From a virus (taxonomy: Duplodnaviria; Heunggongvirae; Uroviricota; Caudoviricetes): a stretch of DNA of 10,350 nucleotides. Positions 3,001 through 9,000 of this stretch are shown here, in pieces. The position numbers are program-made. The stretch's first letter is position 1. Each line of letters begins with the position of its first letter. The stretch lies in IMG/VR virus record IMGVR_UViG_2698536559_000019. One strand, written 5' to 3'.

Positions 3001-6000
3001 TTTATGAGTGGATGCGCCAGAAAATTAATGCAGCGCAGGATCTGAAATGGGCCAATGAAGCCAGGGCTAAGCAGGCTGAAAATCTGTCCGCTCTGGAGCA
3101 GGATATCACCAATCTGGAAAAAGCAGCGGCATTAAGCATTGCCAGAATGATTACATACCCACGTTAATAGCTAACCAACGAGGCTAATAATGGAATTTAA
3201 AGATTTACCAAAAGAAATCCAGACAATTGCTGCAACGACTCTCGGTGATAGTCTGGTGAAAATTGACCCGGCATACACCAAAAAAGAAACCATCGATAAT
3301 ATGGTTCGTAATGTGCGCAATGCTTTTTCTGGGCTATATGGTTCTGATAATCAAAAGCAGGAAAGCGATGTTAATAAACGGGTAATTTCTGTTTGCGTGA
3401 ATGGCCATGTTCTTTCATCAATCAAAACAGAAACGGCGACAGTCTTCGATTGCCTTTGCATTGTACAGAGCCTTGTTGATGCCCTGTTTCGTTCAGTGAA
3501 TTTAGAAAATGATGCAAATCTGCGAGGGCGCACAATAGCACATCCATATGCACATACTTTAGGCTCTGTGGATATCAAAGATCCCACAAATCTTTAATGA
3601 AATAGTTAACGCGAATTGTACTTGCTCTTTCAGTTGCTTTCAGAATACGCGTTGAAACTGCTGGCGGTAATTTGGTATTCCATTTATTAAAATCATGCCC
3701 GGGAAAGTACTCTTCGAAAATACTTTTAACTGCAGACTCGCCTATTGAAATGCTGCTTACCATGCGATTTTGATAAAGGCATTTAGCAATAAGAGTTGAT
3801 TTTAACATTCACCCTCCTGAGGGTTGGTAATTAAGGAGTTCTCCACGGGTGAAGTGGAGTGCGTGCGCCGGACACGGGTGAACATCCGGCACTGACAGTT
3901 TACTGAAAGGATATTTCTCTGAAAAGTCAGAGCATAACGCGAAAGCGCGCGGCGGTAAGTATGGCGGGGTTATTCCTTCCCCGTTGAGGACACCGGGTTG
4001 TCAGGTTGACCATACGCTTAAGTGACAACTCCGCTGCAACGCCCTCTGTTATCAATTTTCTGGTGACTTTTGGCGGTATCAGTTCTACTCCGTGACTGCT
4101 CTGCCGCCCTTTTTAAAGTGAATTTTGTGATGTGGTGAATGCGGCTAAGCGCACGCGGAACAGTTAAAACCAAAAACAGTGTTATGGGTGGATTCTCTGT
4201 ATCCGGCGTTAATTGTTAACTGGTTAACGTCACCTGGAGGCACCAGGCACCGCATCACAAAATTCATTGTTGAGGACGCGATAATGGAAACGTTATTACC
4301 AAACGTTAATACGTCTGAAGGTTGTTTTGAAATTGGTGTCACTATCAGTAACCCTGTATTTACTGAAGATGCCATTAACAAGAGAAAACACGAACGGGAG
4401 TTATTAAATAAAATATGCATTCTTTCAATGCTGGCCCGTTTACGTCCGACACAAAAAGGATGCTGGCAATGAATACAGCATTTGCACTTGTTCTGACAGT
4501 TTTTCTTGTTTCCGGAGAACCAGTTGATATTGCAGTCAGTGTTCACAGGACAATGCAGGAGTGTGTGACTGCAGCAACCGAACAGAAAATTCCCGGTAAC
4601 TGTTACCCGGTCGATAAAGTTATTCACCTGGATAATAACGAAATCCCGGCAGGTCTTTAAAACAGTTCCGTAATAAACATCCGATTTCATTCTTATATGC
4701 CAGCAATGGCAGGGATTTGTTCACCCTTAAATCTGTAATGAGGTAAAACAAAATGAGTAAAGTCTTTATTTGCGCCGCCATTCCGGACGAACAGGCAATA
4801 AAGGAAGAAGGTGCAGTCGCTGTAGCTACTGCCATTGAAGCCGGTGATGAACGTCGCGCCCGCGCAAAATTTCACTGGCAATTCCTGGAACATTATCCGG
4901 CTGCTCAGGACTGCGCTTATAAATTTCTTGTCTGCGAGGATAAACCCGGTATACCCCGCCCTGCCCTCGATTCCTGGGATGCTGAATATATGCAGGAAAA
5001 CCGCTGGGATGAGGCGTCTGCTTCCTTTGTCCCGGTTGAGACTGAATCAGATCCGATGAACGTCACTTTTGACAAGCTGGCCCCTGAAGTACAGAACGCT
5101 GTCATGGTTAAGTTCGACACATGTGAAAACATCACCGTTGATATGGTGATTAGTGCGCAGGAACTGTTGCAGGAAGACATGGCAACATTCGACGGACATA
5201 TCGTTGAAGCGTTGATGAAAATGCCAGAAGTTAACGCCATGTATCCGGAGCTTAAGCTGCATGCCATCAGGTGGGTTAAGCATAAATGTAAGCCTGGTGC
5301 CAAATGGCCCGAAATTCAGGCAGAGATGCGCATCTGGAAAAAACGTCGCGAAGGTGAACGCAAGGAAACCGGAAAATACACGTCTGTTGTTGATCTCGCC
5401 CGCGCCAGAGCCAATCAACAGTACACTGAAAATTCAACAAGAAAAATCAGCCCGGTCATTGCTGCCATTCATCGCGAATACAAGCAGACATGGAAAACAC
5501 TGGATGACGAACTGGCCTACGCTCTCTGGCCTGGTGATGTGGATGCCGGAAACATTGACGGCAGCATCCATCGCTGGGCAAAAAATGAAGTTATCGACAA
5601 CGACCGCGAAGACTGGAAGCGTATCTCGGCATCAATACGCAAACAGCCTGATGCCCTTCGCTACGACCGCCAGACTATTTTTGGCCTTGTCCGTGAACGT
5701 CCGATCGACATTCACAAAGACCCTGTGGCACTGAACAAATACATTACTGAATACCTGACTACAAAGGGCGTGTTTGAAGATGAAGGAACAAATCAGAGCG
5801 CAACTGATACTCTCTCATCGCCAGTACCAGAAACTGATGCAGTGGAAACGGCAATTCCGGACAACGAAAAAACCGAATGCAAAGTGGAAATCGAACCATC
5901 TGTAGAGCGTGAGGGGCCGTTCTACTTCCTCTTCACCGACAAGGATGGCGAAAAATACGGTCGCGCAAACAAACTTTCTGGTCTGAATAAGGCGCTGACT

Positions 6001-9000
6001 GCAGGGGCTACTGAAATCACGAAAGAAGAATATTTTGCCCGCAAAAACGGTACATACTCAGGTTTACAACAAAATACTGGTGCATCTGACACGACCGCAC
6101 AACCAGAGCCGGTAAAAGTTACCGCTGACGAAGTAAAGAAAATTATGCAGGCAGCCAATATCAGCCAGCCTGACGCCAATCAGTTGCTCGCCGCATCACG
6201 TGGTGAATTTGTTGCAGGGATTAGCGACCCGAATGATCCGAAATGGGTGAAGGGGATTGAAACCCGCGATTCAGTGAATCAGAACCAGCAAGAAACGGAA
6301 CAGAACGACCAGAAAGCGGAACAAAACAGCCAAAATGCGTTACAAAACGAGCCAGAAACGAAACAACCTGAACCAGTAGCGCAACAGGAGCCGGAAAAAG
6401 TCTGCACCGCCTGCGGTCAGAGCGGTGGCGGCAACTGCCCTGATTGTGGCGCGGTGATGGGCGACGCAACATACCAGGAAACATTCGATGAAGAGAATCA
6501 GGTTGAAGTTCAGGAAAATGATCCGGAGGAAATGGAAGGCGCTGAACATCCACACAAGGAGAATGCTGGCAGCGCTCAGGACCACGCCAGCGATAATGAA
6601 ACTGGCGAGACGGCAGCTCCCTTAATTGCGGTGAACGGTCATCACATTATCACATCCACCAGCAGAGTGTGGTACCACCTGATGATCGACCTTGAAACAA
6701 TGGGAACCAACACCAATGCGCCCATCGTGGTTATTGGTGCGGTTTTCTTCGACCCACAAACAGGGGAAATCGGGCCAGTATTTTATATCGTTATCAGTCT
6801 GACTGACGCAATGAATACAGGGGCTGTTCCTGACGGTGGAACCATCGAATGGTGGCTGAAGCAGTCCAGTGAAGCCAGAGCTGCCATTTTAACAGACCAG
6901 GTAAAACTGAAGGATGCCCTTTCGCGGTTTCGGGAGTTCATCAACGAATACTCAGATGAAAAATTCGTTCAGGTATGGGGTAATGGTGCAACGTTCGATA
7001 ACTCAATTTTGCGCACCTCATACGAACGCCTGGGCATCCCCTGCCCGTGGCATTACAGCAACGATCGTGATGTACGCACGATCGTTGAGCTGGGGAAAAC
7101 CATAGACTTCAATGCCAGAAGCGTAATTCCATTCGAAGGCGTACCCCACAATGCGCTGGATGACGCCCTTCACCAGGCAAAATACGTTACAGCCACTATT
7201 CAAAAACTGATCCCGAATCAGGCTGATTTTTAATGTTCAACCCTGATCGCCGTCTCCGAATTATATTGGCGGCGGTCATGCTGTAAGGCACGTGACCACA
7301 TGTATGAATTAACTCTATCGCCAGCAGAGATTCAAGAGATCACGAAATACAAGCGATACACAAGACAGCAACACCAGTTAAGACTGCACGGCATCCCATT
7401 TTTAATCGGGCCTAAAAACGAGCCGATAGTTCTACGCTGTGATATTCCACGTGGACTAACAGCAATGTCAAAAGTATCTGAACTGGTTTCTGCTGACCCC
7501 GATTTTGAGGCACTGAATAATGGGAAGACCAAGAAAAGACAAAAAAGATAATGTACTGCCACCGCGCGTTAGATCGAATGGTTACAGTTACGTATGGAAG
7601 CCCAAAGGAAGCACAAGAACGATAAAGCTCGGAAGAGTGCGGGAAACCAGCGTGGCTAAAGTCTGGCAAAATTATGAACTGGAAAAGGCAAAACTCCACG
7701 ACATAATGACCGTAGCTAAATTATGGCACATGTTTATGGACTCCCCTGCATTTACAGAACTGGCCCCCCGAACCCAAAAAGATTATTGGCAACATCAAAG
7801 GGCATTACTGGCGGTATTCGGGAAAATGCTTGCTGATAATGTAAAAATTGAGCAGGTAAGAATTTTCATGGATAAGCGGGGTCTTGAGAGCAAGACCCAG
7901 GCAAACCATGAACTGGCAAGTCTGAGTCGCGTATACGGATGGGGATATGAGCGTGGGTATGTGAAAAATAATCCATGCAAAGGAGTCAGAAAATTCACGC
8001 TTAAAGCCCGTACTGTTTACATCACCGATGAACAGTATGCTGCGATATATGCGGAAGCAATTCCACAGTTACGTATTGCAATGGAGATATCCTATCTCTG
8101 TGCGGCAAGGCTCGGTGATGTGCTCGAGCTGAAATGGCAGGATATTATGGACAAAGGGATTTACATTGAGCAAAACAAGACCGGCACCAAACAAATCAAG
8201 GAATGGTCTCCACGATTACGTACGGCGATCCAGTTAGCCCGAAATGTATCTTCCGGCACATGCGAATATGTGATCAACACAACCAAAGGCGGGAAGGTAA
8301 TAGCCAAGACGCTGAACAACTGGTGGAATCAGGCTAAACGTGCAGCCGAGCAAAAAGCCGGCGTTCCGTTTGGGTGCAACTTCCATGACATAAAAGCCAA
8401 AGGGATTTCAGATTACGAAGGCAGCAGTCGCGACAAACAAATTTTCAGTGGACACAAAACAGAAAATCAGGTGTTGATTTACGATCGTAAAACCAAAATC
8501 ACGCCAACACTGGATTTGCCGCTTGTGGTCAGTAAGTAGGCAATACAGAAAATTTTCTGGCAAAAAGACCTGGTATATTAACTCTGAATAACTCCCTAAC
8601 ATCTTGATTTTTCTTGGTGTTAAGTCTGATTAACTTTTCAGCTACTTTGCGTATTATACTGATTTTTCTTTATTTTTCTTCGGTCTTGAAAACCGGCGAC
8701 CCGAAAGGGTTCCAGAGTTCGAATCTCTGCGCTTCCGCCAAATAATCAAGGGGTTACCAAATGGTAGCCCCTTTGCTTTTTTGGCTCTTGGTATAAACTT
8801 GGTATACCAATTGGTATATTTTTATTCGGATGAGATTATCGGTCATGAGCGGAACCTCAGGTTCCTCGTCTAATGCCGCTCTTGCAACACGTTACGCTGC
8901 CGAGTATTTTTGTAAAACATGGACTGCTCCAGGCCTGAACCAGGCAGAAGGATACAAAGCCACCTCAGATCTGTCGCATCACTATTTTCGTGCAGAAGGC

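Follow-up and report, generated by a model that had tools for sequence, protein, structure and literature searches.

An intact ydfE-type gene of a lambdoid Escherichia coli prophage encodes a predicted DEDDh 3'–5' exonuclease domain on a RecE-type scaffold

The DNA studied here (IMG/VR record IMGVR_UViG_2698536559_000019; 10,350 nucleotides, called 'the window' below) comes from a Qin/Rac-type lambdoid prophage of Escherichia coli, of which it represents the early-left arm. It contains an intact open reading frame (ORF) of the ydfE type, the focal gene, in which a C-terminal DnaQ/DexA-like DEDDh domain stands behind a RecE-type centre. This combination had been noticed in an initial annotation of the sequence, and it was confirmed in full, far beyond chance. 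The protein is very probably a 3'–5' exonuclease. We propose, with moderate confidence, that it would act as a repressor-controlled early-left DNA exonuclease, trimming DNA ends and flaps in the DNA metabolism of the phage itself.

RESULTS

The C-terminal DEDDh domain

The C-terminus of the focal protein matched PF16473, the Rv2179c-like 3'–5' exoribonuclease domain, over profile positions 2–175 of 177, with E = 9.7e-68 and a score of 227.8 bits, the cut-off being 27. The DnaQ-like motifs read by the initial annotation as DLE, FDN and H-x4-D were all located, in MIDLET (D646, E648), FDNSIL (D749) and HNALDD (H799, D804). These five catalytic residues were invariant in 120 close homologues (90–96% identity) and in six distant representatives.

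A sequence search of the PDB gave only one solved relative, a 227-amino acid (aa) exodeoxyribonuclease (8KEL, with a variant in 8KEN; E = 4e-8), and this sequence-level match suggested an RNase H-like DEDD fold for the head. We took 8KEL and 8KEN to be phage T4 DexA, because the product of T4 dexA agrees with that protein in length and start, and because the aligned residues of 8KEN fit the published S87A/D90A mutant. PADLOC returned only a generic Cas-associated DEDDh match (E = 2e-5).

Relation to RecE

BLASTP against K-12 RecE aligned aa 262–625 with RecE 278–591 (E = 2e-63). The centre of the protein was thus RecE-like, as had been claimed; the likeness did not extend to the N-terminal 260 aa, which form a YdfE_N module. 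Identity to RecE was about 85% over aa 477–625, judged by eye from the BLASTP alignment, and the zinc ribbon and the acidic linker were nearly identical.

The RecE match stopped just short of the PD-(D/E)XK domain of RecE (PF12684 at residues 615–850; the nuclease domain as a whole is taken as RecE 606–866). At the DNA level, the recE homology (77% over window 6184–6626) ended at 6626. The Pfam profile search gave no PF12684 match in the focal protein. The domain search and the RecE alignment therefore placed a DEDDh domain where RecE has its 5'–3' nuclease fold.

With the NCBIfam exonuclease VIII model NF007259, the protein scored 283 bits against a cut-off of 1269, and matched model positions 271–603 of 877. 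Considered as a member of the RecE/exodeoxyribonuclease VIII equivalog, it shared the zinc-ribbon middle, and failed on the nuclease domain, on this score and on the adjacent recT.

It follows from the identity of the domain that the protein should not be a RecET-type 5'–3' resection nuclease and should have another function. The earlier suggestion that it could not make the 3' tails of the RecET pathway, and that its function may differ, was in line with this. The function of the RecE scaffold, the N-terminal part of about 600 aa, has long been unclear. Full-length RecE reportedly behaves differently from its isolated nuclease domain.

Modules of the scaffold

The modules of the protein are given in Table 1. 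The middle module contained a helical domain (aa 245–340) and a beta-hairpin/helix mini-domain (aa 388–432; GPFY...GRANK...EI..EEY). In a 72-sequence alignment, G388, P389, F390, Y391, R404, N406, K407, G418, E421 and I422 of the mini-domain were invariant. An AlphaFold2 (AF2) model of aa 1–470, made with the 72-sequence alignment, showed three confident units separated by disordered linkers. Their confidence (predicted local distance difference test, pLDDT) was about 90 for aa 1–206, 82 for aa 245–340 and 85 for aa 388–432, the last being a beta-hairpin plus helix (GPFY...R.NK...G..EI). For the domains of the middle module the pLDDT range was 80–87.

The internal zinc ribbon and the Q/N/E-rich linker of the initial annotation were both found. 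The four zinc-ribbon cysteines were kept in 119–120 of 120 close homologues and in RecE.

The acidic linker over aa 566–625 (6448–6627), which looks disordered, was among the stretches best conserved between YdfE and K-12 RecE (535–591), with high protein identity as against a DNA identity of 77%. Conservation of this degree would not be usual in a plain spacer and may point to a role in binding.

An intact orthologue of K-12 ydfE

Judged by alignment, the focal gene is the intact orthologue of ydfE (b1577), a pseudogene in the Qin prophage of K-12. K-12 YdfE was 97% identical over aa 1–256, and the DNA was 95.5% identical from DicF through codon 256, with the same order ydfC-dicF-dicB-ydfD-ydfE. 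On the other hand, K-12 ydfE is cut by IS2E after codon 256, so that the RecE-like middle, the zinc ribbon and the DEDDh head are missing. The K-12 entry 'ydfE' is thus the stump of a large nuclease, and is useful as a pointer to it.

YdfE_N (PF27430), YdfE_C (PF27432) and PF16473 were precomputed on exactly this protein, and the two YdfE models, which come from a Pfam release newer than the local copy, also on all 120 close homologues. A family that covers the full length also exists in PHROGs, as phrog_2082 ("exonuclease", 823 positions). At NCBI the proteins are named "3'-5' exonuclease", "3'-5' exoribonuclease" or "exonuclease".

A homologue search gave at least 7735 clusters (90% identity) at E<=1e-5 among 8000 candidates. 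The best 120 of the 7735 were nearly all from Escherichia, and shared the full architecture. Megablast with the DNA that codes for the DEDDh domain found it in 1475 of 5426 complete E. coli genomes. The gene was also present at >=80% coverage in 17 phage records, including Evi, mEp460_ev081, Tritos, HannyBb, PhiR42_1 and PPompW/Stx2a prophages of enterohaemorrhagic E. coli.

The novelty implied by the initial annotation did not stand. The gene is common and already annotated, and of a nuclease kind already noted in lambdoid phages. As a discovery it carries little weight: the architecture is in Pfam, PHROGs and RefSeq, roughly one complete E. coli genome in four has the gene, and DnaQ-type early-left nucleases were described in 2025.

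Exchange of heads on a common scaffold

A scan of 1.84 billion representative proteins with aa 1–640 gave only 251 clusters. Long clusters were classified by local phmmer seeds, with a Pfam check on a sample. The middle module was shared, and the N-terminus was of either the YdfE_N type or the RecE type (PF06630). Three heads were found: DEDDh (for example P0121, P0123, P0129, P0141 and P0251), PD-(D/E)XK (for example P0133, P0198, P0256, P0242 and P0144), and a third head to which Pfam assigned no domain (P0126, P0130, P0134, P0140 and others).

All four combinations of N-terminus and nuclease were present. Phage 689R5, for instance, joined a RecE-type front (58% identical to RecE aa 50–591) to a DEDDh head. 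By this combinatorial pattern, the focal gene is one product of an exchange of heads, with the junction fixed immediately past the acidic linker.

The third-head proteins were 750–790 aa long, and came from Enterobacter, Klebsiella, Kosakonia, Citrobacter, Pantoea, Salmonella, Erwinia and E. albertii. Their name at NCBI is "exodeoxyribonuclease VIII", and YdfE_N and YdfE_C were their sole Pfam domains. Their conserved C-terminal domain of about 270 aa contained the motifs TSIN..YM.MRATE.FGP.G.GWG and KKSLTDAIKKALS.LGFSADVWLGLYD, which resemble the Rad52/Sak signature. Sub-threshold matches to Pfam Rad52_Rad22 were seen in 12 of 17 members (best E = 0.0029), and an AF2 model had a confident beta-sheet-plus-helix core. 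The gene context was KilR, a weak Gam match, the third-head protein and Sipho_Gp157, and it included no annealing protein as a gene apart. For this head, negative results came from Foldseek, hhalign and phmmer alike. A Rad52-like domain was suggested by these results, and was suggestive only. These proteins are probably the "RecE-2" of Zheng et al. (PMC12315714), which is said to lack a nuclease domain.

Absence of an annealing protein, and Chi sites

In the window no gene lay between the focal gene and xis/int, in agreement with the initial annotation. For tblastn searches of the window the queries were RecT of K-12, Bet, Exo and Gam of lambda, and the Rad52-type protein, SSB and Abc2 of phage mEp235; nothing better than E 0.2 came up, and the matches at E<=1 were fragments at chance level. 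The same set gave nothing better than E 0.2 in the 32-kb EC12 prophage locus, in the complete 40-kb phage Evi or in phage 689R5. An annealing protein was also not annotated in the EC12, Evi and 689R5 records, in O157:H7 F1273 (prophage at ompW), in an O25:H4 strain, or in the isolated phage HannyBb; in the last three, Gam and Abc2 were likewise missing from the annotation. Evi is a complete element with a gene 95.5% identical to the focal gene, and neither recT nor bet was found in it.

Contrary to the logic implied by the initial annotation, the lack of an annealing protein does not come from an incompatibility of DEDDh nucleases with such proteins: in mEp235 a closely related domain sits in a module with a Rad52-type protein and SSB.

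Phage Evi contained 15 Chi octamers, against 1.55 +/- 1.25 expected from shuffles; 12 were opposite in strand to the early-left operon, and the remaining 3 had its orientation. All three Chi octamers of the window (653, 698 and 6656) were on the - strand, which runs counter to that operon; the + strand had none. The Rec-module region of mEp235 held no Chi site.

About 22% of lambdoid phages, according to Zheng, Casjens, Davidson, Amundsen and Smith (Genome Res 2025, PMC12315714), lack a Rec module, are Chi-enriched and depend on host RecBCD. Their 'no Rec module, Chi-rich' class has no annealing protein or anti-RecBCD gene, and has >=8 Chi on the putatively active strand and <=6 on the other. 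Evi fits this class, with the Chi-rich strand taken as the active one from the gene orientation. The carrier phages probably rely on host RecBCD and RecA, because no annealing protein and no RecBCD inhibitor were found and because Evi, the one complete phage counted, was Chi-rich.

Comparison with EcD

EcD ('HREX'; Nucleic Acids Res 2025, gkaf501; PMC12153337) is a DexA homologue of E. coli reported to cut only DNA containing 5-hydroxymethylcytosine (5hmC) and to protect against T4. EcD was rebuilt from the published primers as a 189-aa construct, which was 34% identical to aa 644–819 with the same motif spacing. D721, the equivalent of DexA D90, was invariant in the focal family; EcD has Ala there (A78). 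The equivalent of DexA W152, a residue reportedly needed to cut T4 DNA, was S769, and varied among H, Y, S, C and W across the family. The region of DexA D169, the Asp linked with W152 to 5hmC recognition, gave no reliable alignment. Considered as an HREX/EcD-type member, the focal protein thus kept the tetramer residue that EcD has lost (D721), and had Ser (S769) in place of the 5hmC Trp.

The EcD construct begins at an internal Met; the natural start is apparently four codons upstream (MNHL-MIDTET...). EcD lies at 6401–6991 (-) of its genome record, in a prophage context that differs from the window. The printed reverse primer seems to hold one extra A.

A preprint on ISG20-like 'TONDO' defence against RNA phages was considered as well. 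RecE and exonuclease VIII do not appear in it, and prophages come up there solely in connection with two related exonuclease genes.

Gene order and neighbours

The best genome match to the window was E. coli EC12 (98.7% identity), in which the element is integrated beside yccA. Contig LOGZ01000104.1 carried an exact copy of the focal protein with the same flanking genes at a 2-base offset, which makes it the probable source of the window, and a 63-aa ydfD gene is called there. On the + strand the order was the repressor-side regulator region, the PaaA2/ParE pair, ydfC, DicF, dicB, ydfD, the focal ORF, DUF4224 and the integrase (Table 1).

Table 1. Positions of the focal gene, its modules and its neighbours in the window
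Feature	Position	Strand	Evidence
DicF small RNA, early-left (dicBF-type) operon, upstream of focal gene	4058..4109	+	Rfam RF00039, 71.5 bits
dicB	4284..4472	+	PF05358, E 2e-37
ydfD (DUF1482 lysis protein), directly upstream of focal gene	4469..4660	+	PF07358, E 8e-25 on ORF 4415-4660
Shine-Dalgarno GAGG, 9 nucleotides before ATG	4740..4743	+	read from sequence
Focal gene, intact ydfE type, 826 aa, ATG start: YdfE_N + YdfE_C scaffold, C-terminal DEDDh head	4753..7233	+	ORF list, Pfam, NCBIfam, PHROG
N-terminal module, aa 1-260, 'type A', YdfE_N / phrog_5943; not homologous to RecE N-terminus PF06630	4753..5532	+
Middle module, aa 261-480, YdfE_C, common to RecE 278-456	5533..6192	+	BLASTP
Q/N/E-rich low-complexity linker, aa 496-545	6238..6387	+	Q 22%, E 14%, N 12%
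Zinc ribbon CTACG...CPDCG (C551, C554, C562, C565), also in RecE	6403..6447	+	weak Pfam DZR match, E 0.13
Acidic linker, aa 566-640, highly similar to RecE 535-591	6448..6672	+	recE homology ends at 6626
Chi site GCTGGTGG inside focal gene	6656..6663	-
Predicted DEDDh (DnaQ/DexA-like) 3'-5' exonuclease domain, aa 642-814	6676..7194	+	PF16473
Excisionase-type gene (DUF4224), after focal gene	7300..7551	+
Tyrosine integrase, end of prophage arm	7520..8539	+

The same organisation is found in the dicBF operon of K-12 Qin, ydfABC-dicF-dicB-ydfDE, which is reported to be transcribed as a single polycistronic transcript from dicBp, with the CI analogue DicA as repressor (bioRxiv 10.1101/2023.04.14.536235). 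No promoter or terminator of the focal gene's own was found above shuffle expectation, and no sigma-70-like site was found just upstream. By its operon position, the exonuclease gene would be co-transcribed with the host-toxic cell-division and lysis genes DicF, dicB and ydfD.

The order exonuclease-xis-int was seen in every carrier examined. dicB and ydfD were annotated right upstream of the exonuclease in E. coli genome loci and in phage 689R5. Evi and EC12 had a kil gene in this slot instead, in EC12 it replaced ydfD and the dicB was partial, and in HannyBb the small upstream genes were unnamed. The replacement of ydfD by kil and the partial dicB, both in EC12, showed that the slot upstream of the exonuclease is itself mosaic.

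Adjoining the repressor region was a toxin–antitoxin pair, a PaaA2-type antitoxin (PF21217; 1700–1945, +) and a ParE-family toxin (PF05016; 1851–2225, +), labelled RelB/RelE-ParE in RefSeq. Three conserved ORFs without a Pfam match (3190–3597, +, 135 aa; 3575–3808, -, 77 aa; 1299–1733, +, 144 aa) were hypothetical in all related records. A tRNA search of the window gave none.

Just past the integrase, a 197-aa ORF (9343–9936, +) contained three EspF proline-rich repeats (PF04806, E = 2e-74) and is a putative TccP/EspFu-like type III effector. It was left uncalled by the gene caller on contig LOGZ01000104.1. Downstream of int (8780–10350) the window diverged from EC12, and an ORF at 10081–10350 (-) matched a tail-fibre C-terminus (PF06820). 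On contig LOGZ01000104.1, about 2 kb of tail-fibre-type remnant lay between int and yccA. The remnant beyond int may be left over from another prophage that used this attachment site.

DISCUSSION

A role in phage DNA metabolism

The explanation that we favour, with the moderate confidence given above, is as follows. As the final cargo gene in an early-left operon under repressor control (ydfC-dicF-dicB-ydfD-ydfE-xis-int), ydfE would be silent in a quiescent lysogen, and YdfE would be made on induction or infection together with DicF, DicB and YdfD. Its DEDDh head would strip nucleotides from the 3' ends of DNA, rather than RNA, by the Mg2+-dependent two-metal mechanism of the superfamily, and the scaffold would bring the head to the partner or substrate that the scaffold of RecE recognises. 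In this way 3' tails and flaps would be trimmed at phage DNA ends and in recombination intermediates, and there would be no 5'–3' resection in the style of RecE or lambda Exo.

Two outcomes of the trimming can be envisaged. Blunting of 3' overhangs would permit the loading of RecBCD. Alternatively, removal of non-homologous 3' tails would allow the invading end to prime replication. Their basis is the end requirements of RecBCD and the removal of 3' flaps in annealing pathways. Both would be consistent with the reported role of T4 DexA in intron homing.

The closest characterisable context points, by analogy, in the same direction. In mEp235 the 57%-identical stand-alone domain lies in the recombination module, between SSB and Abc2 and one gene after the Rad52-type protein. 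That the same scaffold elsewhere carries the recombination nuclease of RecE would also argue for a role of this kind. We regard the enzyme as a candidate accessory factor for a RecBCD-dependent phage lifestyle, because the carriers examined had no annealing protein of their own and the one complete phage counted was Chi-rich.

Several points weigh against this role. EcD, a distant homologue (34% identical), is reported as an anti-T4 defence nuclease. PF16473 is named for an exoribonuclease, so the substrate may be RNA. The fold search with the N-terminal 470 aa gave no informative match that would point to the binding target of the scaffold. Literature searches on Rv2179c with prophage, PF16473, RecE with DEDDh, and YdfE found no functional study. 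Zheng et al. (PMC12315714) exclude DnaQ-type genes next to int from the Rec module, and a review, as they cite it, holds that 3'–5' single-strand DNA exonucleases usually inhibit homologous recombination.

Other explanations

An HREX-type nuclease for defence or superinfection exclusion, which would degrade the 5hmC DNA of incoming T-even phages and spare the host DNA, was considered unlikely. The Pfam family and motif spacing are indeed common to the focal domain, T4 DexA and EcD, EcD is reported to protect E. coli from T4, and exclusion genes are frequent in prophage early regions. However, the Asp loss that defines EcD was absent, with D721 invariant, and the W152 position was a variable one. 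The gene stands last in line in an operon that a repressor controls and lacks its own promoter, PADLOC gave nothing more specific than the generic match, and EcD comes from another genomic context and has no 640-aa scaffold. We gave defence a lower rank than a role in the DNA metabolism of the phage itself, because the defining features of EcD were missing and because the operon is repressed with no promoter-like site for this gene.

Scavenging or turnover appeared similarly improbable. Here the enzyme would act during lytic growth on fragments of host DNA, like DexA, or on the 3' ends of RNA, like Rv2179c, and by degrading them would feed phage synthesis or shut off the host. The scavenging role of DexA is documented, the Pfam family is named after the Rv2179c exoribonuclease, and the gene is grouped for expression with the host-toxic dicF, dicB and ydfD. 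On the other hand, we know of no lambdoid temperate phage that degrades the host chromosome. A 640-aa RecE-type scaffold would be needless for bulk degradation, the close stand-alone homologues lie inside recombination modules, and the sequence matches in the PDB included the DexA-like entry and not Rv2179c.

An anti-defence enzyme was judged very unlikely. It would destroy a host immune nucleic acid whose 3' end is free (retron msDNA, for example, or a linear signalling oligonucleotide), or would shield the phage ends from being sensed by the host. The idea draws on the anti-host functions held in lambdoid early-left operons and on the ability of DEDDh enzymes to remove any accessible 3' end. 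Against it, the protein showed no similarity to described anti-defence proteins, no link of the family to anti-defence was found in the literature, and the family is fused to the scaffold of a recombination protein.

A decaying, non-functional recE remnant has hardly any probability: the K-12 copy is an IS2-cut pseudogene and many carriers are cryptic prophages, but the 826-aa ORF is intact, the catalytic residues and zinc-ribbon cysteines are (nearly) invariant across the 120 variants of 90–96% identity, conservation is even over all four regions, and isolated plaque-forming phages such as HannyBb carry the gene.

The scaffold as a platform

If the Rad52-like reading of the third head is true, the scaffold would consistently carry recombination effectors, and the proposed trimming role would be strengthened. 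A broader and rather doubtful extension would make the YdfE/RecE front a modular platform aimed at DNA ends or at a partner in the host, with three swappable heads including an unrecognised Rad52-like annealing domain, and would make the DEDDh version a dedicated helper of phage replication dependent on host RecBCD and Chi. Were this so, the N-terminal part of RecE, of about 600 aa, would become tractable by comparison of the heads on one scaffold. A RecE scaffold with at least three natural heads offers a clean comparative handle on scaffold function. Two leads from this work are the most useful: heads are swapped on the RecE scaffold, and the gene is associated with phages that lack a recombination module, one of them Chi-rich.

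Comparison with known systems

RecE of the Rac prophage shares with the focal protein the middle module, the zinc ribbon and the acidic linker, and its gene occupies the same early-left slot, downstream of cell-division inhibitor genes and upstream of xis/int. RecE differs in its PD-(D/E)XK 5'–3' head, its PF06630 N-terminus and its recT partner, whereas the focal protein has a predicted DEDDh 3'–5' head and YdfE_N, and its gene has no recT after it.

T4 DexA is a 3'–5' DNA exonuclease with reported roles in the scavenging of host DNA and in the homing of introns (PMC12153337). It belongs to the same DEDDh subfamily, and its catalytic residues align with those of the focal domain. DexA and EcD, however, are only 30–34% identical to it, the DexA-specific loops are absent in the focal domain, and the two come without a scaffold and from other genomic contexts. 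Rv2179c of Mycobacterium tuberculosis likewise shares the PF16473 family and the DEDDh motifs; it is a stand-alone bacterial exoribonuclease without phage context, and was absent from the sequence-level PDB matches.

Zheng et al. (PMC12315714) counted DnaQ-type nucleases among the members of lambdoid Rec modules, and described other DnaQ-type genes as sporadic, "very near int" and outside a recognisable module. With dicB, ydfD, xis and int as its neighbours, the focal gene was not a Rec-module member and fitted the sporadic near-int category.

The nearest non-fused relatives were the exonucleases of the mEp235 gp30, epsilon34 and Sf6 type, which share 57% identity over the whole DEDDh domain, the (M)NHLM(I/V)DLET motif and the early-left operon. 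These are stand-alone proteins of about 180 aa, whereas the focal domain is fused to a 640-aa scaffold. In mEp235 the order is Rad52-type annealing protein, SSB, exonuclease and Abc2; the phage of the focal gene, in contrast, has no annealing protein, SSB or anti-RecBCD gene.

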